From an uncultured Muribaculaceae bacterium (GTDB lineage Bacteria > Cyanobacteriota > Vampirovibrionia > Gastranaerophilales > Gastranaerophilaceae), in contig CAYMMX010000006.1 of the NCBI GenBank assembly GCA_964391675.1, positions 33,546 to 97,545 of the forward strand: a DNA stretch of 64,000 nucleotides, given 5' to 3'. The translations under genes and the position numbers were made by a program. The notes under the pieces were generated by a model that ran no database searches, was not told the origin of the DNA, and saw only the letters and a list, made by a program, of their open reading frames with translations. Each line of letters opens with the position of its first letter. Positions within the stretch are counted from its first letter, which is position 1. Shown in pieces: positions 7,291 through 40,657 of the stretch.

Positions 7291-7472
7291 AAATTTATCC
7301 TTTTTCTGTCTAATTCTAATTTTAAATAATTGAACAATACTAAATACTGTTATAACAATAATATAGCATAATTTCAAGATATATGTGTTCATATATTTGA
7401 ATTATCTTAAAATAGGCTAAAACTATTACTAAACAGCAAACATGATAATATTAAGTTTTGTTAAGTTTAACA

Positions 7473-8480: not shown

Positions 8481-8533
8481 TTTATTATTATAATTTAAAA
8501 ATATATAACATAAAGTTATATAATAATATTTAC

Positions 8534-9505: not shown

Positions 9506-9711
9506 AAACATCCTCAATTAATTACTTACAACTAAAATTTTAGCATTATCCTAAAAGATTTGCAAACAAAAAGTGCATTATGACAAACTTTAACCTTCCT
9601 ATAAAAGGCACTTGAAACAATTCAAGATAATTTTATCATACATGCACTTTACACTTACATTTTAATAAATTTTTAAATAAAAAACATCCCCATTAAGGCT
9701 AATAAAATAAA

Positions 9712-12162: not shown

Positions 12163-12298
12163 ACTTCCTCTCTAATCCACTTTACTAATGATAAAATAAA
12201 TAGTTGTAAAAAACAAATTGTAAATATAAATACTCCATGTTTGTTTATATTTATGTTAACATTCCTAATAAAAACCGTTTAAACCAAAGAAAGATTAT

Positions 12299-13855
12299 AT
12301 GGTATCAAAAATAATAACAGCAACAACCATGGGTTTAAATGCCTATAAAATAGATGTGGAAGTTGATTTTGTAAATTCACTACCAAATATATCAATTGTG
12401 GGATTACCTGATATTGCGGTAAATGAAGCAAAAGAAAGAGTTCGCTCGGCTGTTAAAAACTCCGGTTTTACATTTCCAGGACAAAGAGTAATAGTTAATT
12501 TAGCCCCTGCTGATATAAAAAAAGAAGGAACAAATTTTGATCTGCCTATTGCCGTAGGAATTTTAACTCGAGGGGGATTCATAAATGAAATCTTTCTTGA
12601 AAATACGGCTTTTTTAGGTGAATTATCTCTCGATGGCAGTCTAAGAGGAATAAACGGAATTTTACCACTTGTTTCAGGACTTAAAGAACTTGGTATCAAA
12701 AAAGTAATAGTACCCCAAGTAAATACTAAAGAAGCTGCGCTAGTAGACGGAATAGATGTATATGGTGCAGAATATTTGATAGACGTAATTAATCATTTTA
12801 GCGATGATTCTGAGTCTAAATTAATTAAGTCAACAAAAAATATAGAAAATTATCTTAATGAAAACACCCCAAATACATATATTTATGACTTTAAAGACGT
12901 AAAAGGACAACAAAAAGCAAAAAAAGCTCTGGAAATAGCTGCAGCAGGTGCCCATAATATACTAATGATGGGGTCTCCCGGATCAGGCAAAACATTAATG
13001 GCAAAATGTTTTGCCTCTATACTACCACCTTTAAATATTCAAGAATCACTGGAATTAACAAAAATATATAGCATAAGTGGCTTATTGCCATCAGATAAAC
13101 CTTTAATTACTCAAAGACCTTACCGGGCAGTACATCATTCTGCATCTTCTGTAGGAATAATCGGAGGTGGAAGCAACCCAAAACCTGGAGAAATAACTCT
13201 GGCTCATAGAGGTGTTTTATTCCTTGATGAAATGGTTGAATTTCCAAGAAATGTTTTGGAAACCTTAAGACAACCTTTAGAAGACGGTGAAGTTACAATC
13301 TCTCGTGCCCAAACTTCAATTAAATACCCCGCCGATTTCATGCTGCTTGGGGCTATGAATCCTTGTCCTTGCGGCTTTTTAGGCGATAGCCAGAAAAATT
13401 GTACCTGTTCTGAATTTCAAATACAAAGATATCGTTCAAGATTATCGGGACCTCTTCTTGACAGAATTGATTTACAAATTGAAGTGCCAAGACTAACACC
13501 GCAAGAGCTTATTAATATGAAAGATTCTTCAGAACCTTCCTGCGAAATAAGAAAACGGGTTGTTAACGCCAGAAACATACAATTTCAAAGGTATAAAGGA
13601 CTAGGAATATTAACTAATTCCGAGCTTAATACTGATTTAATCAAAAAATTCTGTCAAATAGATAAAGAATCAGAAGATATTCTTAAAAATGCCATTATAA
13701 AATTTAATTTGTCAGGAAGAAGTTATGACAGAACTCTAAAACTCGCAAGGACAATTGCTGATTTATCCGGTGAAAAAAATATACTTAAAACACATATTGC
13801 TCAGGCCCTACAATACAGAACTTTTATTGCTGAAAATATTCATGCCAATCTATAA
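12299..13855 (+). CDS. comM: YifB/ComM family Mg-chelatase-like AAA+ ATPase
   Basis: N-terminal Lon-protease-like domain, Walker A 'GSPGSGKT', Walker B 'RGVLFLDE', and a Cys cluster 'NPCPCGFLGDSQKNCTC'. Confidence 0.9.
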   Translation: MVSKIITATTMGLNAYKIDVEVDFVNSLPNISIVGLPDIAVNEAKERVRSAVKNSGFTFPGQRVIVNLAPADIKKEGTNFDLPIAVGILTRGGFINEIFLENTAFLGELSLDGSLRGINGILPLVSGLKELGIKKVIVPQVNTKEAALVDGIDVYGAEYLIDVINHFSDDSESKLIKSTKNIENYLNENTPNTYIYDFKDVKGQQKAKKALEIAAAGAHNILMMGSPGSGKTLMAKCFASILPPLNIQESLELTKIYSISGLLPSDKPLITQRPYRAVHHSASSVGIIGGGSNPKPGEITLAHRGVLFLDEMVEFPRNVLETLRQPLEDGEVTISRAQTSIKYPADFMLLGAMNPCPCGFLGDSQKNCTCSEFQIQRYRSRLSGPLLDRIDLQIEVPRLTPQELINMKDSSEPSCEIRKRVVNARNIQFQRYKGLGILTNSELNTDLIKKFCQIDKESEDILKNAIIKFNLSGRSYDRTLKLARTIADLSGEKNILKTHIAQALQYRTFIAENIHANL

Positions 13856-14050
13856 TATATAAAAATGTCCGTAAAAATACTTAAATAAGGTGGAGTAGGT
13901 GCTACTGCGGACTTTTCAAACTTTAATAATGGTTTATACTAAAAATATAAATCACGATTGGTTTATAGGTTATTAATTAAGGCTCACGCCCTTTGATGGC
14001 AAAGCTATTTATTAATAAAACAGGAAGAGATATGTATATAAGAGGAAATT

Positions 14051-14413
14051 ATGGGCTATATTCATTGTTGTTCTGGATTAAGAAAAAGTAAAAGCTATTC
14101 TATATCTCCTGAAGAAAATTATTCTTATGCTCAAATAGATTATCTGGAAGAATGTCCTGTATGTGGTCATACAGTAGCTCAAATAACCAGAATAGACTGC
14201 GAAAATAATGTCTCTGTATGCAGAAAAATCAATGAAAAAGCCAGAAAGCTGTTTGAGAAATTAAAAAATAATATCCTCTTTGAAAAAAATAAAGAAAGAA
14301 AATTTCTCGAACACTCATCAAAGTTTTTCCTCTACTATAATGAATTTGGAATAAAGAAAAAATGTTATTCGAATCTAAGTTCATTAAAAATAGGATTATT
14401 TGAAAACAAATAA
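14051..14413 (+). CDS. hypothetical small Cys-rich protein (possible zinc ribbon)
   Basis: 120 aa with an SD (AGAGGAAA) 4 nt upstream. It contains 'CC...CPVCGH...C...C'. I recognise no family. Confidence 0.5.
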   Translation: MGYIHCCSGLRKSKSYSISPEENYSYAQIDYLEECPVCGHTVAQITRIDCENNVSVCRKINEKARKLFEKLKNNILFEKNKERKFLEHSSKFFLYYNEFGIKKKCYSNLSSLKIGLFENK

Positions 14414-14487
14414 AAATATTTTTTAGAATCATAAACCACAACTATCCTAAAACAGGCCCTTGGCCTTCTAAATTATCTTACTCTACT

Positions 14488-14517
14488 ATGGGGAACTTAT
14501 GTTTCCCCATTTTTTTA
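14488..14517 (+). terminator. Rho-independent terminator
   Basis: ATGGGGAA-(7 nt loop)-TTCCCCAT, followed by T7. Confidence 0.65.
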
Positions 14518-14610
14518 CAAGAAAATACATTAGAAAAAGTCATTTTTTAACGTGTAGTATTAAGTAACTAGCTAGTGTTGAGAATATAAATAAAATAAAT
14601 CTAAGGAATT

Positions 14611-14814
14611 ATGATGAATCTATCAAAAAGAGAGTTGGAAGTTCTTGAGTTGATTAGTCAAGGCTATTCTGATAAAGAAATTGCTTGCAACTTAAAAATA
14701 TCAGCAAGAACGGTTCAAACACATGTTACAAGAATAGTTATCAAGTTAGGTGCAAGAAACAGACCAAATGCAGTTGCAAACTATCTCATGCAACATTATA
14801 TACGAGTCACTTAA
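14611..14814 (+). CDS. stand-alone LuxR/GerE-type HTH transcription regulator
   Basis: 67 aa: 'LSKRELEVLELISQGYSDKEIACNLKISARTVQTHVTRIVIKLGARNR'. This is a GerE-type HTH with no receiver or ligand domain. An SD, TAAGGAA, lies upstream. Confidence 0.8.
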   Translation: MMNLSKRELEVLELISQGYSDKEIACNLKISARTVQTHVTRIVIKLGARNRPNAVANYLMQHYIRVT

Positions 14815-14824
14815 AGGAACATAT

Positions 14825-15325
14825 ATGAAAAGAATAATAATACACTGGACAGCAGGCGGATATATTCCGACATCTTATGAAAAAGAACGTTATCACTATT
14901 TAGTAGATAGCGCAGGTAAAGTACATTGTGGAAAATTCAAGCCGGAAGTAAATTTAAATTGTAAAAAAGGATTATATGCAATGCATACAGGAGGAGGAAA
15001 TACAGGTTCAATAGGAGTATCTATGTGTGCAATGGCCGGCTTTAAAGGAAAAAATAATCAAGGAATTTTTCCTATTACAAAAATACAGTTTGAAGCAACG
15101 ATGAAGCTATGTGCAAAGCTTGCTGCAAAATACAATATAAAAACAACAGCTGAAAATATTATGACTCATTATGAATTTGGGCAAAAACATCCTAAAACAA
15201 GCAGCAATGGGAAAATAGATATTATTTTTATCCCGCCTTATCCATGGATATCAAAAGATGATATAGGTAGTTTTATTCGCTCAAAAATAAGATGGTATGA
15301 AGAAAATTTAAAAGAGGAAAACTAA
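14825..15325 (+). CDS. N-acetylmuramoyl-L-alanine amidase (Amidase_2/PGRP, T7-lysozyme-like), probably the endolysin
   Basis: 'IIIHWTAGGY' and 'IMTHYEFGQKHPKTSSNGKIDI' fit the Zn-amidase pattern. The ATG at 14825 has AAAGGAA upstream; the ORF-track start at 14750 would overlap the LuxR gene. Confidence 0.75.
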   Translation: MKRIIIHWTAGGYIPTSYEKERYHYLVDSAGKVHCGKFKPEVNLNCKKGLYAMHTGGGNTGSIGVSMCAMAGFKGKNNQGIFPITKIQFEATMKLCAKLAAKYNIKTTAENIMTHYEFGQKHPKTSSNGKIDIIFIPPYPWISKDDIGSFIRSKIRWYEENLKEEN

Positions 15326-16866
15326 TGCAAACTTATTTTTATAATTTATCAGGAGGAATAAATCAATCTGCCAGCAAAACTGCTTTGGGACTGGATACAA
15401 AAAAATTATACTGGGCTGATGCAAAAAATATCGAAATCCTTCAAAATAATGGTATTGCAAGACAAAAGGGGAATATTCTTTTATTTGAATTAACTCAAAC
15501 AGAAAAAATAATCGCATTACATCCATTAAAAGACGGAACAACCTTTAATTTACTAATAGCTACTGAAGCTGGCAATTTGTATGTTTATAACACAAAAAGC
15601 CTTAATATTACAAAACTTGATAAGGTAATTGACGGGTCCTCAAAAATAGTATTTACAGATTTTTTAGATGGAGTTGTTGCCGGAAGCAAAAGAGATACAA
15701 TTTTTTATATTAATAATGATAACGGTTATTTAATTGAAAGTTGTAACTTAAAAGATGCTAATGATAATGATATTAAAAGCGATGTTGTTAGTGTCTTTGC
15801 CGGTAGATTATGGATAGCCGGAGGATCAACTTTGTATTATTCTGCACTTGGAAAATACAATGATTTTATAACACAAAATGATGCGGGATATATTAATAAT
15901 TTTCACTTAGATACAAATAATATAACGGCATTAAAACCTTATAAAGATTATCTGGCTGTGTATAAAGAGAATTCTGTTTACTTATTATCAGGCACAAGTA
16001 GTGAAGATTTCAAAATAATACCTTTTGCAGATAAAGGAACCTACTCAACAAAAAGTGTTGTTAATGTAAATAATAAACAATATTTTGTAAGTCAAGGTAT
16101 TTTTTCAATGGAACAAGCCGGTTTGCTAAGTCAAATTCAACTTGGAGATGAAATTTCATTAAATATTAAGCCTGAATTCGAAAATTTTGATAAATCAAGA
16201 TTTAATGAAGTTGTTGTAATACATTATAGTAAGAAAAATCAGGTTTGGTACTTCATTCCATATAAGAATGATGAATATTTTCATACTATTTGGATCTATA
16301 ATTATGTGAATCAAGCTTGGTTTAAAAGAAATATTCCGCAAGACATAAGTTCGGTTTGTTTATTTGATGATTATGTTTTAACAGCTGATAAAAATGGTAA
16401 AATTTACAGGGAAGATTTTGGAAATACCTTTAATGGACTAGCCATAGATTTTTTTTGGAAATCACCTTTTTTAGCTGCAGGTGACTCAAATGTGAGAAAA
16501 ACTATAGAAGAGTTCTATTTTGTATTAGATGAATCTAATGATAATAATTTTGATTTTTCTGTTTGTAAAAACTATGACGATACTTATAAAGATGATGAAG
16601 ATAAGATATATTCCTCTAATTCAACTAATTTAATTTGGGACGGAGACAATTTATCTTCAAGCTTAAATACTTATTGGAATTACGACACAAATAACTCAAA
16701 TGAAGAAAACATTTATTCTCTTTGGGCTATAGGTACAAATTCAATACAAAAAGCTGAAATTTCAGAATCTAATTATTCTGTTCAATTATGTATAAACGGT
16801 CAATCATTGGATCAAAACATGGCCATAATAGGATTAGAGTTTAAAGAAGTATATTTTGACGAATAA
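15325..16866 (+). CDS. hypothetical 513-aa protein of the phage island (structural or tail-associated candidate)
   Basis: It is translationally coupled to the amidase gene (TAATG) and has an SD, AGAGGAAA. Repeated beta-strand-like blocks (LYVYN, IFYIN, LYYSA, VYLLSG, VWYFIP, IWIYN) suggest a propeller or sandwich fold. No family recognised. Confidence 0.55.
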   Translation: MQTYFYNLSGGINQSASKTALGLDTKKLYWADAKNIEILQNNGIARQKGNILLFELTQTEKIIALHPLKDGTTFNLLIATEAGNLYVYNTKSLNITKLDKVIDGSSKIVFTDFLDGVVAGSKRDTIFYINNDNGYLIESCNLKDANDNDIKSDVVSVFAGRLWIAGGSTLYYSALGKYNDFITQNDAGYINNFHLDTNNITALKPYKDYLAVYKENSVYLLSGTSSEDFKIIPFADKGTYSTKSVVNVNNKQYFVSQGIFSMEQAGLLSQIQLGDEISLNIKPEFENFDKSRFNEVVVIHYSKKNQVWYFIPYKNDEYFHTIWIYNYVNQAWFKRNIPQDISSVCLFDDYVLTADKNGKIYREDFGNTFNGLAIDFFWKSPFLAAGDSNVRKTIEEFYFVLDESNDNNFDFSVCKNYDDTYKDDEDKIYSSNSTNLIWDGDNLSSSLNTYWNYDTNNSNEENIYSLWAIGTNSIQKAEISESNYSVQLCINGQSLDQNMAIIGLEFKEVYFDE

Positions 16867-16937
16867 ACCTGCGCCACTTAAATTTCAGATAAATTTAAAA
16901 TCTGAAAGTATTTACATTAACACGAAAGGGAGAAAAA

Positions 16938-17795
16938 ATGACAGATGAAACATCAACAGCTCATTATTCTGCGTTTATACCGGAAATTTGGAGCCAAAAA
17001 CTAAACAACATGCTTACAAAAAACTGCGTAATGCTTCAATGCGTTAACAAAAATTATGAAGGAGAAATTAAAAATCAGGGTGATACTGTAAAAATTATAA
17101 CACCAGCAACAGTTTCAATCTCTACAGTTACAGATTCTGCTATAACATATAGTGAACTAAATCCTACTGAAATAGATCTGGTCATCGACCAAAAAAAATT
17201 CTTTGCATTTAAAATCGGAGATATCGCACAAGCCCAAGCAAATCAAGACATAATGGAAGCACATCTACAAAACGCCAAAAGTGCCATCGAAGAAGTACAA
17301 GATTCACATTTATTGGGACAGCATGCATATGTTGATTCTGACAATATTGTAGGCGGCACAACTCCGGTAACGCTAAATAAAACAACAATCTATTCAAATT
17401 TTGTTGATTTAGCTCTTAAACTAAAAAACTCAAATGCTGTTAATAATAATCAAAAACCATGGGTGGTAATAAATCCGACTATTGAATCGTATTTACTACA
17501 AAGCACTGAGTTCATTAGTGCCTATAATGTTGCAGATGAAACATTACGAGAAGGTGCTATAGGTCGGATTGCAGGGATGGACGTACTTGTAAGCACAAAC
17601 TTAACAGAAACCGACGACAAATATTATGTTCTTGCCGGTACAAACGAAGCCATTACATTTGCATCTCAATTATCAAAAATCGAAAGCCTCAGAGATAAAG
17701 ACAGTTTTTCAGACCTTGTAAGGGGTCTTTATTTATACGGAGCTAAAACTGTGCAACCGAAATCTTTAGCTAAAATGGTAGTTACAGCCCCTTAG
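16938..17795 (+). CDS. phage major capsid protein (small HK97-fold / P22-coat-like family)
   Basis: 285 aa. 'FIPEIWSQKLNNMLTKNCVMLQCVNKNYEGEIKNQGDTVKI' is a pattern I associate with P22-coat-like capsid proteins. It has a strong SD (AAAGGGAG) and is followed by a strong terminator. Confidence 0.68.
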   Translation: MTDETSTAHYSAFIPEIWSQKLNNMLTKNCVMLQCVNKNYEGEIKNQGDTVKIITPATVSISTVTDSAITYSELNPTEIDLVIDQKKFFAFKIGDIAQAQANQDIMEAHLQNAKSAIEEVQDSHLLGQHAYVDSDNIVGGTTPVTLNKTTIYSNFVDLALKLKNSNAVNNNQKPWVVINPTIESYLLQSTEFISAYNVADETLREGAIGRIAGMDVLVSTNLTETDDKYYVLAGTNEAITFASQLSKIESLRDKDSFSDLVRGLYLYGAKTVQPKSLAKMVVTAP

Positions 17796-17813
17796 CCAAG
17801 GGTTTCAATTATA

Positions 17814-17853
17814 AATAATGCAGCTTAAATTTCTCAAGCTGCATTATTTTTTT
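17814..17853 (+). terminator. Rho-independent terminator after the capsid gene
   Basis: 13-bp stem AATAATGCAGCTT/AAGCTGCATTATT with a 9-nt loop, followed by a T-run. Confidence 0.75.
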
Positions 17854-17869
17854 AAAAGAAAGGAGTTTT

Positions 17870-18115
17870 ATGTTTATAAGCTTAAAAGCAACAATAAAAG
17901 AATTAGCATATTCTGCAGTAATAATGGCAGAAGAAACACTATCTTCATCAAATGGACAAAGCAAAAAAACAGCAGCTATTGAATACATAATTTCAATGCT
18001 ACCAATACCATCAATGTTTAAATGTATTATTTCAATAATCTTATCAAAATTTATAGATGAAGCCGTTGAAAATGCTGTTACGTACATGAAAGATATTCAA
18101 AATCCGGAGGAATAA
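17870..18115 (+). CDS. small phage-island protein with one hydrophobic segment (holin-like is only a possibility)
   Basis: 81 aa with an SD, AAAGGAG. It has a hydrophobic stretch 'MLPIPSMFKCIISIILSKFI'. Confidence 0.5.
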   Translation: MFISLKATIKELAYSAVIMAEETLSSSNGQSKKTAAIEYIISMLPIPSMFKCIISIILSKFIDEAVENAVTYMKDIQNPEE

Positions 18116-19003
18116 ATGGATAAAGAACATATAAATAATTCATCTTACACCGAAACCCAAGATTTACAAACAACTGATGCTGAGGATAAAATTGAAAACT
18201 CAACTGAAGAATATGAAAAAAGTCCTTTAATAAAGGATGTTCAAGACAAGGATTATAGAGAAAATATTATATCCGAAGACTTACACAATGAAATTCTAAA
18301 AAAGCTTGATATTATAAATGATGAAAAAAATAATTCTCAAGCAAAATCTGAATTAGAAAAAACCAAATTCAATGAAAATTTAGGCAAAATTAAAACTTCA
18401 GAATCACTAGTTGAAAATAATCAATTAAAATTAAATTTGAAACAAGATTTTAATAAAATACAACTGTTAATGAATGCCGGACTAATTAATTCTGCACAAG
18501 GACAAAATTTAAAAAAAGAAGTACTTAAAAAAACGTTTGATAAGCTAGTACAAACAGAAAAAATTAGACGGAATTTAACTAAACTTTCAGTGAGTAATAA
18601 TATACCATTAAATAAATCAAGTATAACTAACGGCATACAAGAGTTTAATAACGAAAATCCAAGTTTTTTTGATACAGAAGGAAGAAAAGAAGTCTTAAAC
18701 TATTTAACGTCAGCTAATATAAAACTTGGTAAAGATGAAGTTAAGAAGATATCAGATATTATAAGGTCAATTGAAAAAATTGCTATTAACAGATATCTTC
18801 AAAAAACGACTCACGAGAAGAATCTAAAAGAATCAAATGAAACCGCCAAACAAAAATTAAAAGCAAATGCTCAAAAAAACGGTATAAATACAAATTTCTC
18901 AAGAACTTTTACTCGTGAACAAATCGGTAACATGAGTGGTGCGGAGTTCGCAAAGTATGAGTCCGTAATAATGGATCAACTAAAAAAAGGACAAATACGA
19001 TAA
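18116..19003 (+). CDS. coiled-coil, Lys/Glu/Asn-rich phage protein; scaffolding-protein candidate
   Basis: 295 aa with an SD, GGAGGA. It has low-complexity helical composition. The C-terminus 'FTREQIGNMSGAEFAKYESVIMDQLKKGQI' resembles scaffold (GP20-like) C-termini, from memory. Confidence 0.4.
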   Translation: MDKEHINNSSYTETQDLQTTDAEDKIENSTEEYEKSPLIKDVQDKDYRENIISEDLHNEILKKLDIINDEKNNSQAKSELEKTKFNENLGKIKTSESLVENNQLKLNLKQDFNKIQLLMNAGLINSAQGQNLKKEVLKKTFDKLVQTEKIRRNLTKLSVSNNIPLNKSSITNGIQEFNNENPSFFDTEGRKEVLNYLTSANIKLGKDEVKKISDIIRSIEKIAINRYLQKTTHEKNLKESNETAKQKLKANAQKNGINTNFSRTFTREQIGNMSGAEFAKYESVIMDQLKKGQIR

Positions 19004-19087
19004 ACGAAAAATGATTAATAGGAAATTGAAAATAGTTTTAAACCTATTTTACTTTTTCCTATTTTCATTTTCTAAAAAGGAGAAAAA

Positions 19088-19726
19088 ATGAATTATTTTG
19101 AATTAATAAATAAATGCTTAATTGAACTTAACTATAAAAAATGTAGTGAATTCACTGACCTTGTTAAAAATGACCACGAAAAAATTAAAAATATATTAAA
19201 TATAATAAACTCAGAAGTCTGTAGTTTTGACACCTGGAATTTCTTGCTCAGAAAACAGCAAATAGAATTACCAAAAAATTATTGTGAAATATATAATAAT
19301 ATACAAGGAAGAATTCATTCATTGTATATAGAAAATAAAAAATATGACTTTGAAAGTAATTTCGAAAAATTTTTACTAAACAAACAACCAACAAATTCAT
19401 TTACTGTTTTTAATGATAAAATCTTGCTTCCTATTTTTGATAAAAATAAAACAATAGAAATAATCTATTATACAAATAATTTTGCACAAGATTCAAATGG
19501 TTCAGACATATCTAAAATGAGCGCAGAAGATGATGTTTCAATTATACCATTTCCTTTTGTAGAACCGATTTTAGTATATGGAACATGCATGAGACTAAAA
19601 GGAAACGCTCAATACAGCAAGTTTTCATATTGGTATGGAATGTATAAAGATTCTCTTTCTAATATGAGGTCAAAAATAGGAATAAATGCACAAGAAACAC
19701 CTCAAATAAGAATAAACAGACTTTGA
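19088..19726 (+). CDS. hypothetical phage-island protein (212 aa)
   Basis: SD AAAGGAG upstream. No recognisable motif. Its position after the capsid and scaffold-like genes is compatible with a head-completion or adaptor role (inference). Confidence 0.55.
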   Translation: MNYFELINKCLIELNYKKCSEFTDLVKNDHEKIKNILNIINSEVCSFDTWNFLLRKQQIELPKNYCEIYNNIQGRIHSLYIENKKYDFESNFEKFLLNKQPTNSFTVFNDKILLPIFDKNKTIEIIYYTNNFAQDSNGSDISKMSAEDDVSIIPFPFVEPILVYGTCMRLKGNAQYSKFSYWYGMYKDSLSNMRSKIGINAQETPQIRINRL

Positions 19727-19952
19727 AAATACGGCAAATAATTTTAGAAAATAATGAAAAACAGGAGGGCTAGAACAGTTCAACTAAAAACAGACATGTA
19801 AAATAAAAGGAAATATTAAAACATGCCTTAAATTTATTAGTTCCCCAAATTCTGTCCCCCCTGTTAAGATTTTACACTAGCCGAAATATAAATAGCATGA
19901 CTATTATATAATTTTTTTTAAAAAAACACAAATAAATAATAAGAAATGTAAA

Positions 19953-20387
19953 ATGAAAAACTTAACAAATAAACAAAAAAAATTCATTACAGAATACATA
20001 AAGTCACTAAATGCAGAGCTTTCAGCAAAAAACGCAGGATATAAATCAACCGACTTAAATAGAACTGTAGAGAAATTATTATCTAACAATTCTGTAATAT
20101 ATGAGATTAAAAATAAAATAAAAAAACACATGTCTTCTTTTAGAATAAATAAAGGATATGTTGTTCAAAAATTATTAGAGATAGCAGAATTTTCACTCGA
20201 AGAAGAAGAAATTCTTGATAAAGAGGGAAGTTATACTGGGAAAAAAAAACTTCGAGATGCAGCTACTGGATTAAAATCTCTTGAATATTTATGCAAATAT
20301 CTGGGTTTTAATACTAAACCTGATGATAATCTTGACTATGGGTCAAAAATAATTACTATAAAAAATTTGGACGATGAAAAAATCTAA
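19953..20387 (+). CDS. phage terminase small subunit
   Basis: The N-terminus 'LTNKQKKFITEYIKSLNAELSAKNAGYKS' is the typical Terminase_2-type HTH opening. Confidence 0.7.
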   Translation: MKNLTNKQKKFITEYIKSLNAELSAKNAGYKSTDLNRTVEKLLSNNSVIYEIKNKIKKHMSSFRINKGYVVQKLLEIAEFSLEEEEILDKEGSYTGKKKLRDAATGLKSLEYLCKYLGFNTKPDDNLDYGSKIITIKNLDDEKI

Positions 20388-20413
20388 AAACAAATCTTAC
20401 AAAGGAGTAAATA

Positions 20414-20773
20414 ATGACAAAAAAAGATGAAAATGATATTGAACAAAAATTATTAAATAGCACGTCTTTTGATGAATTAATCAAAAAAAAAATAGAAACA
20501 GAGCTGAAAAATGAAATAGAAAAAGCAAAAATTAAAACTCAAACTCAAACAATAACAGATATTTCAAAAGTTCCGTCTGAATTAATTTTCAGTAAAAAGT
20601 CTACCTACAGAATATTTAATAAAGTAAACAAAACAGAAAGTTTTATAAATGGACTTCAGGCAGAATCAATGTTGGGACTGCAAAATAATGTAAGAGAAAA
20701 AATAAAAAATGGAAAAGTCGATGTATTTTCAACTGAAGAACTATATATTAAATTTGAGAAAACTGAATATTAA
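20414..20773 (+). CDS. hypothetical phage-island protein (119 aa)
   Basis: SD AAAGGAG upstream. No motif recognised. Confidence 0.55.
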   Translation: MTKKDENDIEQKLLNSTSFDELIKKKIETELKNEIEKAKIKTQTQTITDISKVPSELIFSKKSTYRIFNKVNKTESFINGLQAESMLGLQNNVREKIKNGKVDVFSTEELYIKFEKTEY

Positions 20774-20798
20774 AAAGAGCGGATAAACCGCTCTTTTT
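20772..20798. terminator. bidirectional terminator between convergent genes
   Basis: AAAAAGAGCGG-ataaa-CCGCTCTTTTT. The A and T tracts on both sides allow termination in either direction. Confidence 0.7.
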
Positions 20799-20816
20799 AA
20801 TTATAGCATTAAAATA

Positions 20817-21272
20817 TTATGACAATACTACTGATAATACTTCATTAATAAATAATACAAAAAATAAGATAAATACTAATGTAGCTAATGCTTTCTGAAT
20901 ATCAGCAAATAAAAATTCTCTTCTGTTTTTTCTTATGTCATTAATAGCTGTAATTTCTTCAGTATATGGTTTTACCGGAAACTGTTTTTCTATTTGTTCT
21001 AAAACATTAGAAAGCTTAACTTTAATAAGAAAATTATAAGAATCTACATTAATCCACCATAAAATACAAACGGCTAAACCGGCTGCACTAAATACTAAAG
21101 TTGAAGATAAACCAAAAATGAATGAATAATCCTTAACTAAATACATAGTCAAAATTAAACCTAAAATTAAAATTAAATAAAATTTATTAGTACAGAAGCT
21201 TCTATCAACAAATTTTTCTTTCTGTTCAGAGTAAATTTTATATAATTGTAAAACTATCTCTTCTGAAGTCAT
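20817..21272 (-). CDS. small integral membrane protein, the only minus-strand gene in the island (moron-like)
   Basis: 151 aa with an SD, AAAGGATGG. An amphipathic N-terminal helix is followed by two TM segments (FYLILILGLILTMYLV, LVFSAAGLAVCILWWINV) and a C-terminal TM (LATLVFILFFVLFINEVL). Confidence 0.65.
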   Translation of the reverse strand: MTSEEIVLQLYKIYSEQKEKFVDRSFCTNKFYLILILGLILTMYLVKDYSFIFGLSSTLVFSAAGLAVCILWWINVDSYNFLIKVKLSNVLEQIEKQFPVKPYTEEITAINDIRKNRREFLFADIQKALATLVFILFFVLFINEVLSVVLS

Positions 21273-21333
21273 ATAAACACCATCCTTTCATTTGAGATAA
21301 TTGTATAAGTTTATTTGGAAAAAGTCAAGAGCT

Positions 21334-21876
21334 ATGAGCAAATTTATAAAAATAATAGTAAATAAGAATGAAGGTAAATTCTTAAATATTGAATATTTAC
21401 CTAATATTATAACCTTATACGAAAAATTCTCCCGCTATATTCATGATGATTATTTTTTAGAAAATAAATCTATTGTGGATGCTGTAATTAATCTAGTTGA
21501 AAAAACAACTCCATTTTTTTGGGGGATTCTAGATAAAAAAAATGAAAAATTTGCAGGGTTTTGTTTCTTAGAAAATTTAACAGGGAATAGTAAAAATTTA
21601 CACAGTGCAGATATTACAACTTGCTTTGAACCTGAATTTTGGGGAAACTACACAAAAAAATGTGCTCAGAAATTCATAAAATACTGTTTTAAAAAATATA
21701 AGTTCGAGAAATTAAAAGCATATATTTTTCCTCAAAACTCAAGAGTTAAAGCTCTTTTAAAAAAAAGTGGGTTTAAAAAAGAAGCTTTATTAAAGGCTGA
21801 AACATATAAAAATGGTATTTTACAAGATATTGAAATATATTCACTTATTAAAACAAGCAACAAAAAGGAGATTTAA
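21334..21876 (+). CDS. GNAT-family N-acetyltransferase (RimJ/RimL-like)
   Basis: 'FAGFCFLENL...', 'WGNYTKKCAQKFIKYCFKKYKFEKLKAYIFPQNSRVKALLKKSGFKKEALLK' fits the Acetyltransf_3-like pattern. I prefer the ATG at 21334 over the TTG at 21301. Confidence 0.72.
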   Translation: MSKFIKIIVNKNEGKFLNIEYLPNIITLYEKFSRYIHDDYFLENKSIVDAVINLVEKTTPFFWGILDKKNEKFAGFCFLENLTGNSKNLHSADITTCFEPEFWGNYTKKCAQKFIKYCFKKYKFEKLKAYIFPQNSRVKALLKKSGFKKEALLKAETYKNGILQDIEIYSLIKTSNKKEI

Positions 21877-21878
21877 TA

Positions 21879-23540
21879 ATGAAATTTGAAAAAACCAATG
21901 AGGATTTAACAAAAACACTGGATTTAGACGAAGAGCTGATTCTTATCCAAAAAATCCCCGAAAAATATGACCATATGGATAATGATAGAGCTGAACAATT
22001 AAATGACATAAAATTATTAAGAAGCACAATATATCGTAACCAAATACCACAAATTAACGGATGGGGGTCAAAAATTGAACTTCCTGATATATATGAGCTT
22101 GCCCAAACACTTAAATCTCATATAAGTGATAATTTATATTCGCATCCCGATGCAATGTTTGATGTTACAGGCACTAATCCTCAAGCACAAAGTTTTGCAA
22201 ACAGACAAAAAGCAATGCTTGTAAATACATTTGATAATATGAAACTGGAGAACGAACTAGAAAAAATAATAGACTCAATAGTCGAAACAGGTGAAAGTAC
22301 CATCTTTTTGGGATGGGAAACAAAAATTAAAACAATAAGAAGAGCTCAAAGTATTGAAGAACAATTGGTCACACCAACAGAAGACGGTTTTATTATAGAA
22401 AACAAAGTTGTTTATGACAACCCAATTGTTAAACACGTAAAATCAGAAGATTTTGTTTTTGATAAAAACAAAAAAGATAACTGGGACAGTTGTGCCAAAA
22501 TATACAGAACTTACTGCGAATTAGAAGAACTAATGGATAATAAAGCAAACAATCTTTTAACCAAAGAAAAAATAAGTGCTTTGAAAGGAGTGATGAACAA
22601 TAAATTTAAAAAAGAAACAGATAAAGCAGTTGATGATAAAAGAATTGAAATTCTGGAGTACTGGGGAGATATTGAATTAAACAACGGTGATATATTAAAA
22701 AATTGGCTTATTGTATTAGCAGGAAGAAAAGAAATAATAAGATTTGAACCAAATCCATTTATAATAAATCCTTTTATTCATTCTAATATAATTGAAAATC
22801 CCGAAACATTAAGAGGAATTTCACCACTGAGAGTTGCTCTAATTTTAAATAATATTTCATCAACTATCTTAAATAAACAAATTGATGCCCTTGCATTAAT
22901 GATGAACCCTCCTTACTTAGCACCCAAAGGTAGTTTTAAAGGAGAGCAAATAGTAAAACCCGGTAAAATCATTGAATATGATGCTACATTAATGCCAAGC
23001 GCTCCAACCGCACTAAGTTTTGATAAAGCAATGCAAGGATGGGATTTTTTAAGATATTTTAAAACAACAATAGAAAGCGCAACAGGAATTTTTAATAATA
23101 TGAGTGGAAATCTTCAATCAGAACAAAGAACTGCAACTGAATTAAATTATTCGGTAAATGGACAAACTGCCAGATTAAATATGTTATTGGAAACAATAAA
23201 CAGAAAAATAATTATACCAATGGTAGAAAAAACAGCAGAATTAATTGCTAACTTTAAGATTGGCAAAGAAATTATCAGTATAAATGATAGAGGAAGAACT
23301 TTGTTTATAGAAGTTGATGAAAACATAAGAAATGGAAATTATATCTACAAATATGGAGATAGAAAAGCATCACTGGAAAGAAAAACAAAAATGAACGAAA
23401 TCTTTAATATTGTAAAAGCATTTGCCGAAGTACCAACAATAGCCAACCAAATTAATTGGATAGAATGTTTTAAATTTGCATTGGAACAATACGGCATCGA
23501 AAATTCCAGTAATTTCCTGTTGGAAGGGAATACAAACTAA
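21879..23540 (+). CDS. phage portal protein candidate
   Basis: 553 aa with an SD, AAAGGAG. Its size and its position directly upstream of the large terminase fit a portal. No signature motif was verified by eye. Confidence 0.5.
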   Translation: MKFEKTNEDLTKTLDLDEELILIQKIPEKYDHMDNDRAEQLNDIKLLRSTIYRNQIPQINGWGSKIELPDIYELAQTLKSHISDNLYSHPDAMFDVTGTNPQAQSFANRQKAMLVNTFDNMKLENELEKIIDSIVETGESTIFLGWETKIKTIRRAQSIEEQLVTPTEDGFIIENKVVYDNPIVKHVKSEDFVFDKNKKDNWDSCAKIYRTYCELEELMDNKANNLLTKEKISALKGVMNNKFKKETDKAVDDKRIEILEYWGDIELNNGDILKNWLIVLAGRKEIIRFEPNPFIINPFIHSNIIENPETLRGISPLRVALILNNISSTILNKQIDALALMMNPPYLAPKGSFKGEQIVKPGKIIEYDATLMPSAPTALSFDKAMQGWDFLRYFKTTIESATGIFNNMSGNLQSEQRTATELNYSVNGQTARLNMLLETINRKIIIPMVEKTAELIANFKIGKEIISINDRGRTLFIEVDENIRNGNYIYKYGDRKASLERKTKMNEIFNIVKAFAEVPTIANQINWIECFKFALEQYGIENSSNFLLEGNTN

Positions 23541-23559
23541 AAAGCTGGAAGTAGAGAGA

Positions 23560-23591
23560 AGACGCAGAATCAATTAATTGATTCTGCGTCT
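23560..23591. repeat. 32-nt perfect palindrome between the portal candidate and the large terminase gene
   Basis: AGACGCAGAATCAATT|AATTGATTCTGCGTCT. It starts 20 nt after the portal stop and ends 17 nt before the terL ATG. Confidence 0.95.
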
Positions 23592-23608
23592 ATTTAAAAT
23601 AGGAAAAA

Positions 23609-24901
23609 ATGGAATATAATTTATTAAAAGCACAAAGAGAATTTTTAGAAATTCCACATGATTACAGTCTAGATGTTGCAGTGTATCAAGGAGGTTTCGG
23701 GTCTGGAAAAACTTTTTCCGGCTCTCTTCTTGGAATACTCTTATGCATAAAATTCCCCGGAATAAGAGGGCTTGTTGGGGCACAAACTTATACTCTGGTT
23801 AGAGATACAACATTACAAACATATTTTGAACACTTTGAAAACTTGAATTTTAAAGATGGAAAAGACTATGAATGGTCGACTTCATTACAAAAATTGACGT
23901 TTAAAAATGGTTCGGAAATATTATTTAGGCATTTTGACGAGCCAAACAAACTTAAATCCCTAAATTTGGGGTTTGCTGAAATTGAAGAAATGTCTGATAT
24001 TCCCTTTTCTACTTTTAAAATGCTTCTTGGTAGAATGAGACAAACAATAAAAAAAGAATGGAAAAATTTTACTTATAGAATTTTTGGACACACAAACCCT
24101 GAAATACAAAGAGGGTGGATTTATAAAACATTTATAGAAAATTATAAACCGAATTACCGTATAATTTCCGCGCCAACAACTGAAAATGTATATCTTCCCG
24201 AAGGCTTTTGTGAAGAACTTAAAAAATTATATGATGAAGAATATTATAGGATTTTTGTTCTTGCTCAAAATGGAGAATATAATTCGGGACTAGTTATAAA
24301 AGATTTTACACATGAGAACATAAAAGAAATTTACTACCAACAAGATATGAACTTACATATAACATGTGATTTTAACGTAGATCCGATGGCTTGGATTTTA
24401 GCTCATAAAACTGATGATAAAGTTTTCTTTTTTGATGAAATAGTAATGGAAAATACAACAACCGCAAAAGCTTGTGATGAATTTTATTACAGATATCCTA
24501 ATCACAAAGGAAAAATTATTATAAACGGTGATGCATCCGGAGACAATAGAAGTTGTACCAGTGAATTCACTAATTACGTAATTATAAAGAAAAAACTTGA
24601 AAGATTTGGGTATGAAGATATTGAAGTACAAATTAAAGCCTTTAACCCACCAATAAAAAACAGAATAATGGCTTTCAATTCAAGGATAAGGTCAGCAGAT
24701 TCTCAAATAAGGCTTTATGTTGATAAAAAATGCGAAAAACTTCTCTATAATATCTATAATTTAAAATACAAAGAAGGTTCTTCTAAAATTGATTTGCCAT
24801 CACACTCTCAAATTAAACAAGCAAAAGAACTGAAGTTTTTAGGTCACCCAATGGATGCTGCATCATATTTAGTTGAGTTTTATTGGCCGATAACAATATG
24901 A
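23609..24901 (+). CDS. phage terminase large subunit
   Basis: Walker A 'YQGGFGSGKTFSG', Walker B-like 'LGFAEIEE', and a C-terminal nuclease half with 'ITCDFNVDP' and 'INGDASGDNRS'. Confidence 0.85.
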   Translation: MEYNLLKAQREFLEIPHDYSLDVAVYQGGFGSGKTFSGSLLGILLCIKFPGIRGLVGAQTYTLVRDTTLQTYFEHFENLNFKDGKDYEWSTSLQKLTFKNGSEILFRHFDEPNKLKSLNLGFAEIEEMSDIPFSTFKMLLGRMRQTIKKEWKNFTYRIFGHTNPEIQRGWIYKTFIENYKPNYRIISAPTTENVYLPEGFCEELKKLYDEEYYRIFVLAQNGEYNSGLVIKDFTHENIKEIYYQQDMNLHITCDFNVDPMAWILAHKTDDKVFFFDEIVMENTTTAKACDEFYYRYPNHKGKIIINGDASGDNRSCTSEFTNYVIIKKKLERFGYEDIEVQIKAFNPPIKNRIMAFNSRIRSADSQIRLYVDKKCEKLLYNIYNLKYKEGSSKIDLPSHSQIKQAKELKFLGHPMDAASYLVEFYWPITI

Positions 24902-24912
24902 GAAAGGAATAA

Positions 24913-25149
24913 ATGGAAAAACTTTTACATTACTCTCCTATATTAATTGCAGTTATGATTTTTTTAATTCAGCAAAGAATAGTAATTACACCAGAGCAAC
25001 TGGAAAAAAAACATCGTGAAATTCTTAAAGATGCAGAAGAAAGATTTGCAACACTAAGCAGTGTTCGAGATTTAAAAGAACAGTTTACAGACATGAAAGA
25101 CAAAATAGACAAAATTTATGACTGTATCATTGCAGTTAAAAAAAACTAA
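24913..25149 (+). CDS. small membrane-anchored coiled-coil protein (78 aa)
   Basis: SD GAAAGGAA upstream. An N-terminal TM 'YSPILIAVMIFLIQQRIVI' is followed by a charged helix. Confidence 0.5.
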   Translation: MEKLLHYSPILIAVMIFLIQQRIVITPEQLEKKHREILKDAEERFATLSSVRDLKEQFTDMKDKIDKIYDCIIAVKKN

Positions 25150-25169: not shown

Positions 25170-25205
25170 AGGCGCCAAATAGTTTTAAAAAACTATTTGG
25201 CGCCT
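25170..25205. terminator. bidirectional terminator at the right edge of the island
   Basis: 15-bp stem AGGCGCCAAATAGTT/AACTATTTGGCGCCT, lying between the convergent 78-aa gene and speE. Confidence 0.7.
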
Positions 25206-25223: not shown

Positions 25224-26063
25224 TTACAATAATTCTTTTAAAAAATTTGGGAGGGCAAAGCGAGCCAAATGATATTCTTTATTATAAATTTTACACGTTT
25301 TCGTAATCTCTTCACAACGTTTTTCATCAAAATAAGAAAGGGGGTTAATATCGACAGAGCAAAAAGCCCAAGCCCAATATCCACCAGGATATGTAGGGAT
25401 TGGAGATGTATATGTTGACGTTATCGGGAACACTTTTTTTAATAAATTATACATTTTCATTATTTCATTCTTATTTACAACTGGAGATTCCGATTGTGCA
25501 GCAACTATACCACCTTTTTTCAAAGATTTTTTAACATTATTATAAAATTCTTCAGTAAATAGACCTTCACCAGGGCCCATAGGATCAGTAGAATCAATTA
25601 ATACAATATCAAATTCATTTTCTTTATTCTTAATATATTCAATAGCATCTTCAACCAAAACCTCTACTTTTGAATCATCTAACTTAGCGGCAATCGTGGG
25701 TAAATACTTTTTACATGCATCAATAACCATTCCGTCGATTTCACAAAGTATAACCTTTTCTACCGTATTATGCTTAAGAACTTCTCTTACTGTTCCTCCG
25801 TCACCTCCACCGATTACAAGAACCGTTTTAGGATTTGGATGATTAATCATTGGTATATGAGAAATCATTTCATGATAGAAAAATTCATCACCTTCTGTTG
25901 TCATCATTAAATCATCTAATGTTAGAATTTTTCCCAAAGCTGAATCAGTATCAATAATTTCAACTTTTTGAAATTGCGATTGTTCTGAAAACAAAACATC
26001 TTTTACTTTAATTGCTATACCAAAACCTGCCGGTGTAATTTCTTTATAAAAATTTTCGCTCAT
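25224..26063 (-). CDS. speE: spermidine synthase (polyamine aminopropyltransferase)
   Basis: Motifs 'VLVIGGGDGGTVREVLKH' and 'DSTDPMGPGEGLF'. Confidence 0.9.
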   Translation of the reverse strand: MSENFYKEITPAGFGIAIKVKDVLFSEQSQFQKVEIIDTDSALGKILTLDDLMMTTEGDEFFYHEMISHIPMINHPNPKTVLVIGGGDGGTVREVLKHNTVEKVILCEIDGMVIDACKKYLPTIAAKLDDSKVEVLVEDAIEYIKNKENEFDIVLIDSTDPMGPGEGLFTEEFYNNVKKSLKKGGIVAAQSESPVVNKNEIMKMYNLLKKVFPITSTYTSPIPTYPGGYWAWAFCSVDINPLSYFDEKRCEEITKTCKIYNKEYHLARFALPNFLKELL

Positions 26064-34614: not shown

Positions 34615-34629
34615 GGATAGAGAAATTAG

Positions 34630-36408: not shown

Positions 36409-36416
36409 GTATAAAA

Positions 36417-38189: not shown

Positions 38190-38203
38190 GAATCAAATAA
38201 CGA

Positions 38204-40652: not shown

Positions 40653-40657
40653 CGTGT

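Follow-up and report, generated by a model that had tools for sequence, protein, structure and literature searches.

A phage-derived head and short-tail gene cluster inherited across Gastranaerophilales and its probable role as a podovirus-type, gene transfer agent-like particle locus

Introduction

What is a set of phage head, packaging, tail, and lysis genes for when it sits in a bacterial chromosome with no recognisable gene for integration or replication? The question is raised by a phage-derived island of ~11 kb (positions 14051–25149) in a stretch of 64,000 nucleotides, hereafter the window (contig CAYMMX010000006.1 of assembly GCA_964391675.1, positions 33,546–97,545). The island lies between comM and speE among housekeeping genes (e.g., proS, coaBC, and purD), and its GC content is the same as that of its flanks (~28% throughout the window). 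A first-pass annotation, made from the letters alone, had proposed a domesticated particle-forming system resembling a gene transfer agent (GTA), or a satellite remnant that borrows tails, rather than a dead prophage. Here, we report that the cluster encodes all recognisable parts of a DNA-filled capsid and a short tail and none for an autonomous phage life. The explanation that we prefer, with a probability of roughly 60%, is that the island is a locus of phage origin that is fixed in the chromosome of Gastranaerophilales, is inherited vertically, and encodes podovirus-type GTA-like particles.

Head, packaging, and tail genes

The open reading frames (ORFs) listed in the first-pass annotation were recovered at their positions and are intact, with high-scoring segment pairs of homologues covering at least 80% of nearly every gene (Table 1). 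AGGAG-like Shine–Dalgarno sequences precede most gene starts of the island and terminator-like hairpins occur at three sites, also as first described, and both flanking genes are intact. The run of genes is not uninterrupted, as had been claimed: the minus-strand gene of an 8xMP-family membrane protein breaks it, and this gene and a GNAT acetyltransferase gene had been missing from the list. Profile searches of the island ORFs (Pfam and PHROGs) agreed with the earlier reading in giving no match to integrase, repressor, replication, tape-measure, tube, sheath, or baseplate families; this absence of autonomy genes holds within the limits of profile detection, 3 small ORFs (o120, o119, and o78) having no assigned function. 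Likewise, no tRNA gene was found in the window and no convincing pair of direct repeats around the island. A candidate attachment (att) pair at 13545/25330 (29 nt, 79%) was rejected, being located within comM and speE and of chance-level similarity.

The major capsid protein (MCP), portal, and large (TerL) and small (TerS) terminase subunits were assigned by profile matches, that of TerS to PF03592 corresponding to the N-terminal part of the model. The 295-residue protein encoded upstream of o212 is probably the scaffolding protein. Its profile had no match among PDB sequences, and neither Pfam nor PHROGs gave one; it is about 205–235 residues long in most species, its C-terminal third is conserved, and it is weakly similar (5.7e-5) to the gene in the scaffold position between the portal and MCP genes of a related island in the record MW495066 (described below).

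The first-pass annotation had recognised only head, packaging, and lysis genes and had regarded the island as tail-less or dependent on borrowed tails. AlphaFold2 models of the 212-residue protein o212 and the 513-residue protein o513 were built from alignments of close homologues and compared with the PDB by Foldseek. The o513 model (predicted local distance difference test score [pLDDT] 70, predicted template modelling score 0.69) matched podovirus nozzle or tail chains in all of its top 21 PDB hits, the best being Pa223 (E 3.4e-16, template modelling [TM] score 0.65), followed by PhiM1, VP1, P22 gp10, SU10, and T7 gp12; its BFVD matches included predicted "P22 Gp10 DNA-stabilising" proteins. 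Independently of the models, tblastn matched the 513-residue protein to tail proteins of HMO-2011-type podoviruses. The o212 model (pLDDT 72) had 16 PDB matches with E <1e-3, all of which are chains of podovirus or crAss-like portal–tail complexes, including KHP30, cyanophage A4, VP1, SU10, N4, and GP4, with T7 gp11 lower in the list. These matches reached an E value of 2.6e-7 and a probability of 1.00, but TM scores of only 0.44–0.47; o212 also matched the tail protein family phrog_6013 (1e-3). According to the models, o212 has the fold of the dodecameric podovirus adaptor and o513 that of the hexameric podovirus nozzle. The tail-less reading is therefore wrong, since the cluster has its own predicted adaptor and nozzle. 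Profiles of the 295-, 120-, and 119-residue proteins retrieved nothing from PDB sequences.

Distribution and conservation of the cluster

Relatives of the portal occur in at least 209 GTDB species representatives (one genome per species, the list being a lower bound), with 66–79% identity and on contigs of up to 482 kb. Nearly all carriers are labelled as metagenome-assembled genomes (MAGs) of Gastranaerophilales, Melainabacteria, or Cyanobacteria. Brachyspira VSH-1, an identity suggested by the low GC content, was dropped because the relatives are Gastranaerophilales. The block from o120 to o78 has the same order and strand in the 80 loci that were fetched, and order and strand are kept in all 48 loci spanning both ends (48/48). 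Every one of these complete loci has o120, o212, terS, o119, the GNAT gene, the portal gene, terL, and o78, and 47 have the LuxR, amidase, nozzle, MCP, and scaffold genes. The holin-like gene, which is short and divergent and so possibly under-detected, was found in 42, and the 8xMP gene in only 7. The cluster is 9.4–15.6 kb long, the spread being due to insertions at the portal–terL, terS–o119, and terL–o78 junctions.

The flanks differ among species. A position between comM and speE is confined to the closest relatives of the window, whereas most species have FliI–ZupT–radical SAM genes upstream and the genes of a 574-residue protein and SecA downstream. Genes for YchF, RsmI, S16, BamA-like, and CNNM/CorC proteins also recur as neighbours (assignments partly made by eye). 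The adjacency to comM, from which a functional link to competence had been suspected, is thus clade-specific and coincidental. The expectation that a domesticated system would occupy the same comM–speE locus under purifying selection was borne out for gene order and selection (see below), but not for the site.

No sign of mobility was detected. No recurrent integrase family was present in the flanks of ~70 loci, nor was an integrase found among 71 further neighbouring ORFs, singletons included. The 36 IMG/VR contigs with the cluster portal are all at most 34 kb long and have the same architecture, and none has terminal repeats or a circular form. Neither IMG/VR nor a collection of 50,697 phage records contained a larger phage with these genes, and megablast gave no match in the latter. 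The observations that had been named as speaking against the first proposal, namely an integrase and att sites just outside the boundaries, near-identical complete phage genomes, and confinement to one strain with no selection signal, were looked for, and none was seen.

Mode of evolution

Pairwise protein distances of the cluster were compared with those of SecA at 19 loci with a full-length adjacent SecA, so that this examination of vertical inheritance uses one linked marker and not a genome-wide tree. The 2 sets of distances are strongly correlated (Mantel r 0.886; none of 2000 permutations was as high), and the mean p-distances of TerL (0.124) and SecA (0.123) are nearly the same. The ratios of nonsynonymous to synonymous substitution rates (dN/dS) were computed as Nei–Gojobori medians of pairs with dS 0.05–1.5. 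All 15 genes are under purifying selection, with medians from 0.035 (terL) to 0.34 (Table 1); the host gene secA, used for comparison, has 0.046. Genes stay intact over divergences at which SecA differs by up to 19%. Distances and dN/dS values together carry the signature expected of a long-maintained, vertically transmitted functional unit.

Ancestry and related islands

Portal homologues were detected in 14 phage records. Thirteen of them are podoviruses of filamentous freshwater cyanobacteria with ~21% identity, among them A-4L, Pf-WMP3, PP, LPP-2, and CHP58 (Saffermanviridae-related); apart from the 14th record, MW495066 ("Microcystis phage MaAM05/PhiMa05"), no other phage in the collection had a portal recognisable as homologous. 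The cyanophage A4 portal–tail complex is the second-best PDB match of the adaptor model and ranks 12th for the nozzle model. The best phage matches of TerL are Synechococcus phages (28%). The best MCP match overall is in MW495066 (42.6%), and those among genuine phages are ~35% identical. The podoviruses of filamentous cyanobacteria differ from the cluster in having genomes of 40–45 kb with replication, polymerase, and fibre genes. The pattern would fit an old capture from a podovirus of the cyanobacterial type.

Related islands are those of MW495066, Vampirovibrio, and a landfill Melainabacteria MAG. MW495066 (274 kb) is plainly bacterial, Vampirovibrio-like DNA with ribosomal protein, aminoacyl-tRNA synthetase, and flagellar genes and smc. 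A comment published in 2026 argued that the record is bacterial and called the MCP/portal islands in Melainabacteria prophage remnants (PMC13623518); the original authors contest this and hold to a phage (PMC13623530). In the reverse complement of MW495066.1 203663–222499 (our locus L081), the island is located at 6208–14936 beside lepA–proS and encodes portal, scaffold-like, MCP, 214-residue adaptor-like, 512-residue nozzle-like, 385-residue fibre-like, and o78-like proteins and an ORF with an M15-like motif. It differs from the window cluster in its canonical podovirus gene order, in its fibre-like gene and M15-like-motif ORF, and in having no LuxR, o120, or GNAT gene. No terS or terL homologue was found in the ~270 kb of MW495066 that was examined. 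In the window, too, proS is nearby, ~3 kb downstream of the cluster.

Regulatory, lysis, and remaining genes

The protein o120 has invariant residues H5, C6, C7, C35, P36, and C38 and no match in Pfam, PHROGs, the PDB, or PADLOC. The best named match of the solo LuxR helix-turn-helix (HTH) protein is cyanobacterial PedR (2e-14), which is below the cut-off, and the analogy that had been drawn to the LuxR-family control of the Rhodobacter GTA comes down to a resemblance. A non-coding block 5′ of o120 (13977–14003) is at least 90% conserved in ~10 distant loci and may be a promoter or operator for the regulatory end of the cluster.

The amidase stop codon overlaps the nozzle start. The Phage_holin_6_1 score of the 81-residue holin-like protein is just below the cut-off. 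o78 is a candidate holin or lysis accessory; its homologue in L081 is followed, after a 70-nt spacer, by the M15-like-motif ORF (124 residues; peptidase motif seen by eye). o119 had no Pfam, PHROG, PADLOC, or PDB-sequence match. The GNAT gene, the true start of which is probably the ATG at 21334, ends with a 2-nt gap before the portal gene, to which it may be coupled. The palindrome between the portal gene and terL was considered as a conserved site and rejected, hairpins being frequent at this position and the sequence not being kept among loci.

Table 1. Features of the cluster and its borders in the window, with median dN/dS of the genes (0.31–0.34 is the joint range of 4 genes)
Feature	Position	Strand	Evidence or remark	Median dN/dS
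comM	12299–13855		Left flank of island; intact
o120, 120-residue Cys-rich protein (MGYIHCC...CPxC...C)	14051–14413	+	First gene of conserved block	0.19
Terminator-like hairpin	14488–14510	+	Between o120 and luxR
Solo LuxR/GerE HTH, 67 residues	14611–14814	+	PF00196 1.3e-19; candidate cluster regulator	0.27
Amidase_2 endolysin	14825–15325	+	PF01510 4e-13; phrog_5867 endolysin 3e-32	0.20
Tail nozzle (T7 gp12/P22 gp10/SU10 type), 513 residues	15325–16866	+	Predicted β-propeller; AlphaFold2 and Foldseek	0.23
MCP, 285 residues	16938–17795	+	phrog_267 major head protein 1.2e-52	0.11
Holin-like membrane protein, LL-H type, 81 residues	17870–18115	+	Phage_holin_6_1 5e-5; phrog_6918 8e-8	0.31–0.34
Probable scaffolding protein, 295 residues	18116–19003	+	No family match; putative assignment	0.31–0.34
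Tail adaptor (T7 gp11/tail tubular protein A type), o212, 212 residues	19088–19726	+	AlphaFold2 and Foldseek	0.26
Predicted small-RNA gene	19748–19941	−	Promoter, near-invariant 5′ part, terminator hairpin and U-run
Small-RNA terminator hairpin arms	19754–19763 and 19856–19865	−	Followed by U-run
Small-RNA near-invariant 5′ part	19872–19903	−	UGCUAUUUAUAUUUCGGCUAGUGUAAA...
Small-RNA promoter	−35 about 19934–19939; −10 within 19906–19915	−	−10 TATAAT
terS	19953–20387	+	PF03592 (Terminase_2) 3.5e-15; phrog_51 8e-19	0.13
o119, 119 residues	20414–20773	+	No family match	0.31–0.34
Terminator-like hairpin	20769–20801
8xMP-family membrane protein	20817–21272	−	PF24838 7e-16; accessory
GNAT acetyltransferase, RimJ/RimL-like	21301–21876	+	PF13302 4e-11	0.31–0.34
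Portal, SU10 type	21879–23540	+	PF23899 3.9e-22	0.12
Perfect palindrome, 32 nt	23560–23591		Portal–terL spacer; accessory-gene insertion site in other species
terL, PBSX/Terminase_3 type	23609–24901	+	PF04466 7e-20; TIGR01547 1.7e-23 (below cut-off)	0.035
o78, 78 residues	24913–25149	+	Hydrophobic N-terminal stretch; by eye one transmembrane segment and a coiled coil	0.16
Strong hairpin terminator, 16-bp stem	25170–25205	− (as called)	Between o78 and speE; right end of cluster
speE	25224–26063	−	Right flank; intact; convergent with o78

A predicted small-RNA gene in the o212–terS spacer

The spacer between o212 and terS (median ~150 nt) is kept in nearly all loci and contains a block that surpasses every other nucleotide stretch of the cluster in conservation, being detected in 71 distant loci compared with at most 43 for any coding segment. 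The core of this block, CCTGTTAAGATTT(T)ACACTAGCCGAAATATAAATAGCAT, hardly varies among 89 loci in which the neighbouring proteins are only 45–70% identical. On the minus strand, a −35 element TTGnnn, a 17-nt gap, and a TATAAT box were found in 179 of 206 copies, and a hairpin with a U-run in 206 of 206 when each sequence was folded separately. The terminator stems vary by compensatory changes (CAGG/CCUG, UAGG/CCUA, CCGG/CCGG, and GGGGA/UCCC). In MAFFT alignments of the spacers, the stems do not fall into register; RNAalifold therefore gave no consensus for the terminator on these alignments and was replaced by the per-sequence folding. The ~30-nt 5′ region can fold into a hairpin that has a stem of 8 bp, two of them G·U, and a UCGGCU loop. 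The predicted RNA has a median length of 67 nt; in the clade of the window, its terminator stem is expanded to ~105 nt (fold z-score −4.0). Rfam gave no match at gathering scores in the whole window, and only chance-level matches (E about 0.5) in 19650–20000. A plus-strand σ70 or σ28 promoter and a lux box were rejected because their spacing does not fit, whereas the orientation of the A-run and hairpin, the TATAAT, and the TTG −35 fit the minus strand. A single 12-nt match in terL (24300), the only trans-target candidate in the window, was judged to be due to chance.

Identical copies of the module also occur at other chromosomal loci of Gastranaerophilales. In an exact-match scan of metagenome contigs (at least 120 loci), 83 of the matches listed belong to the cluster, terS being at most 400 nt away, and 37 have no terS after the module, some of these being cases at contig ends. 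Of these 37, 19 lie 200–270 nt 5′ of a conserved protein of 155–175 residues without PDB relative, and others have unrelated contexts. In the few cases with enough sequence (L143, L204, L164, and L189), pilin-like, FlgB-like, and two-component genes come after the 155–175-residue protein. Copies of the RNA in other genomes are thus found near flagellar and pilin genes; in the window, minus-strand ORFs at 39972–41755 resemble, by eye, a FliA-like sigma factor and FlhB, and the host would be a flagellated member of the order if these assignments are right.

In the cluster, the RNA promoter is located 12–45 nt upstream of the terS start codon, and any terS mRNA started upstream would therefore be antisense to the RNA. 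We hypothesise that the RNA probably gates expression between the head and tail genes and the packaging genes (terS, portal, and terL). The module could act instead as a DNA site. That it is common to other chromosomal loci points to host-level wiring.

A GTA-like particle locus as the best explanation

As far as sequences can tell, the cluster combines the genomic features by which a GTA would be recognised: its structural and packaging genes reside in the chromosome, genes for autonomy are missing, inheritance is vertical throughout the clade, and selection is purifying. The hallmarks of a satellite, and of an intact or a decayed prophage, were not found. A GTA-like locus could work as follows. 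The regulatory head, composed of the o120 Cys-rich protein and the solo LuxR HTH protein, would switch on the operon; the portal, the scaffold-like protein, and the 285-residue capsid protein, the genes of which are present, would assemble into procapsids without a protease; and TerS and the PBSX-type TerL would carry out headful packaging. A locus that can neither excise nor replicate would leave the host chromosome as the only substrate, to be packaged either at random or, in the manner of lateral transduction, in one direction from a pac site. The adaptor o212 and the nozzle o513, in keeping with their predicted folds, would seal the portal and form the tail, and the holin-like proteins and the amidase would lyse the producer cell. 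The particles would then bring host DNA to neighbouring cells, in the manner of a GTA of podovirus ancestry.

Several points weigh against this explanation: (i) the cluster is known from genes alone, and all carriers are MAGs of uncultured bacteria; (ii) Pfam and PHROGs gave no candidate for a tail fibre, spike, receptor-binding protein, plug, or ejection protein in the window cluster, and the fibre, adsorption, and entry functions may be encoded elsewhere in the genome; (iii) the records of phages with a related MCP are about 23–274 kb long, mostly 37–54 kb, and a head of the ancestral size, if kept, could hold the whole 11-kb cluster, so that the classical GTA criterion of a capacity smaller than the coding locus may fail; (iv) TerS keeps the N-terminal Terminase_2 region, and packaging may therefore be site-specific; (v) SecA is physically linked to the cluster, and the co-divergence test is therefore not independent of regional transfer; (vi) the chromosomal site depends on the clade (comM–speE in that of the window, and between the radical SAM gene and the genes of the 574-residue protein and SecA in most species), which means that at least one relocation occurred; (vii) gene losses occur, 2 loci (L066 and L102) having a variant cluster that cleanly lacks the nozzle, holin-like, and GNAT genes and keeps those of the adaptor, MCP, portal, and terminase, and a third (L025) missing the genes from LuxR through scaffold; and (viii) accessory genes come and go at the portal–terL, terS–o119, and terL–o78 junctions.

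Accessory cassettes and alternative explanations

The cassettes at these hot spots (loci L010–L080, e.g., L029:11737–15018) encode DUF6973 (7), Mbeg1/lipase-like (5), and BD-FAE esterase-like (4) proteins and one GH108 muramidase, with signal-peptide proteins of ~150–170 residues and LprI lysozyme inhibitor-like proteins beside the hydrolases. The layout recalls effector/immunity pairs. The Pfam matches are weak and heterogeneous, and no cassette protein has a PADLOC or PHROG match, for which reason an assignment as defence systems was rejected. Two proteins of the locus L079 have a CxxC...HPNCxC motif resembling, by eye, that of MuF head proteins, and an assignment as MuF toxins was rejected because the motif occurs in L079 only. 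In the window, the cluster has no cassette, and the portal–terL spacer (23541–23608, 68 nt) is empty.

Another variable component in relatives is the protein of ~574 residues, which is not encoded in the window. Its gene lies on the same strand, 47–350 nt 3′ of o78, in 48 loci (e.g., L095:8375–10099), and a paralogue lies within the cluster in L052. The helical N- and C-terminal ends are conserved, and the centre is hypervariable and rich in insertions and deletions (dN/dS 0.35). The family has 703 relatives, none of them annotated, and no Pfam, PHROG, or PADLOC match; the protein may be exposed at the surface, or it may be the receptor-binding component that was not found in the cluster.

These components admit a more elaborate form of the GTA-like explanation, which we regard as possible but speculative: an order-wide GTA of cyanophage-like podovirus ancestry in Melainabacteria, the packaging module of which (terS, portal, and terL) is gated by an embedded copy of a near-invariant, multi-copy host small RNA and which in many species is armed with exchangeable hydrolase/immunity cassettes at the portal–terL junction. 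If true, the domesticated capsid would serve in DNA exchange as well as in antagonism between strains, with a host RNA in control.

The cassettes also bear on the strongest rival, an unlikely one in our view, according to which the particle was selected for antagonism, through PBSX-like killing or head-carried enzymes, with DNA as a by-product. The hydrolase genes beside those of signal-peptide and LprI-like proteins in many species, the MuF-like motif in L079, the membership of TerL in the PBSX family, and the failure to find fibre and ejection proteins are consistent with a killer particle, but the window cluster, which has no cassette at all, the poor and heterogeneous database matches of the cassette proteins, and the restriction of the MuF-like motif to one genome argue against it.

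A capsid-forming satellite (capsid-forming phage-inducible chromosomal island [cf-PICI]-like), or another helper-dependent element that uses a co-resident phage for fibres, replication, and induction, is less probable again. Such an element resembles the cluster in being small and in encoding its capsid, portal, and terminase itself, and a helper could supply the missing fibre. However, cf-PICIs are mobile and have an integrase, att sites, and a replication module but no tail genes, and none of this applies to the window cluster: integrase, att, primase or replication genes, and an AlpA-type regulator are absent from the cluster and its flanks, and it has its own adaptor and nozzle. Occurrence in at least 209 species, co-divergence with SecA, mostly stable housekeeping flanks, and the lack of circular or terminally repeated contigs point in the same direction. 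The satellite half of the first-pass proposal, including its comparison with cf-PICIs, thus fails on integrase, replication genes, and mobility, and the domestication half stands.

A functionless, cryptic prophage remnant, kept by chance or by selection on 1 or 2 genes such as that of the amidase, is very improbable. Similar Melainabacteria islands have been described as remnants (PMC13623518), and the gene losses in L025, L066, and L102 would fit decay, but purifying selection acts on each of the 15 genes, all of them intact, the constraint on terL matches that on secA, and all 48 complete loci are collinear. With dN/dS well below 1, order-wide collinearity, co-divergence with SecA, and neither an integrase nor a larger phage, the first-pass view that this is not a decaying prophage holds. 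A minimal autonomous temperate podovirus, its integration and replication functions hidden in o120, o119, or o78 or supplied by the host, is scarcely credible: several conserved ORFs do lack an assignable function and the site differs between clades, but the unassigned ORFs, at 78–120 residues, fall short of the size of known recombinases or replicases, the cluster diverges in step with SecA, each clade has a single site, and neither IMG/VR nor the phage collection yielded a free genome.

Comparison with known systems

In our literature search, no paper was found that ties Melainabacteria or Gastranaerophilales to a GTA or describes this cluster. To our knowledge, GTA families are very few in number, and FpGTA (2026) is the sole podovirus-like candidate described so far. 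The RcGTA of Alphaproteobacteria is likewise a head-centred, phage-derived cluster that is inherited vertically across a large clade under purifying selection, has no integrase or replication genes, and is released by a holin and an endolysin. RcGTA is siphovirus-like, with a tape measure and a tail tube, and is regulated by CtrA/GafA; the window cluster is podovirus-like, comes from another phage lineage, and has, as far as is visible, unrelated regulation. PBSX of Bacillus subtilis shares the terminase family of TerL and is a non-replicating chromosomal element, as the window cluster would be, that packages host DNA. PBSX is ~28 kb long and myovirus-like, with a contractile tail, and kills sensitive cells; the window cluster has no tail sheath, tube, or baseplate. 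The DNA packaged by PBSX is not injected (PMC12946183).

FpGTA of Faecalibacterium prausnitzii is the closest described case, likened here by gene content and description and not by sequence. It is an operon of ~10.5 kb with terS, terL, portal, scaffold, and MCP genes that was read as a podovirus-like GTA (Nat Commun 2026, PMC12946183); it occurs almost throughout a gut lineage, lacks genes for integration or replication, and has genes resembling those of short-tailed phages (PMC12946183). Its particles are ~40 nm in size and contain 8.4–8.9 kb of DNA, with proteomic evidence; the fibre/receptor-binding protein and lysis genes are in a second locus of 5.5 kb, and TerS was described as having no obvious DNA-binding domain (PMC12946183). 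The window cluster is alike in being a similar-sized, phage-derived head and packaging operon of a gut lineage without integration or replication genes. It differs in that it belongs to another phylum, in that particles were seen for FpGTA and genes alone are at hand here, and in that the lysis, adaptor, and nozzle genes are in a single locus, the TerS N-terminal region is kept, and no fibre locus is known.

Other genes of the window

Directly upstream of comM, a minus-strand gene (9712–12162) encodes an 816-residue Type IIG restriction–methyltransferase fusion (PADLOC REase_MTase_IIG 1e-51; N6_Mtase). Four tandem paralogous genes of ~590 residues (32851–39967) lie in the part of the window with the lowest GC content (0.23–0.26). 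Their products are very hydrophobic and, by eye, apparently multi-pass membrane proteins, the first of which has no Pfam match at 1e-5, and a further hydrophobic ORF of 592 residues is located at 43468–45246.

Significance

The carriers belong to a group that is sister to Cyanobacteria, is not photosynthetic, has not been cultured, and is often found in animal guts. A GTA-like locus in at least 200 of its species would be new for the phylum and would add an independent podovirus-type GTA domestication in a phylum different from that of FpGTA. It would recast the dispute over whether the Vampirovibrio/PhiMa05 islands are prophage remnants or belong to a jumbo phage. The locus offers a definite sequence onto which virome reads can be mapped to test for capsid-mediated gene flow in these bacteria, and the unusually conserved small-RNA module may link particle production to host regulation.

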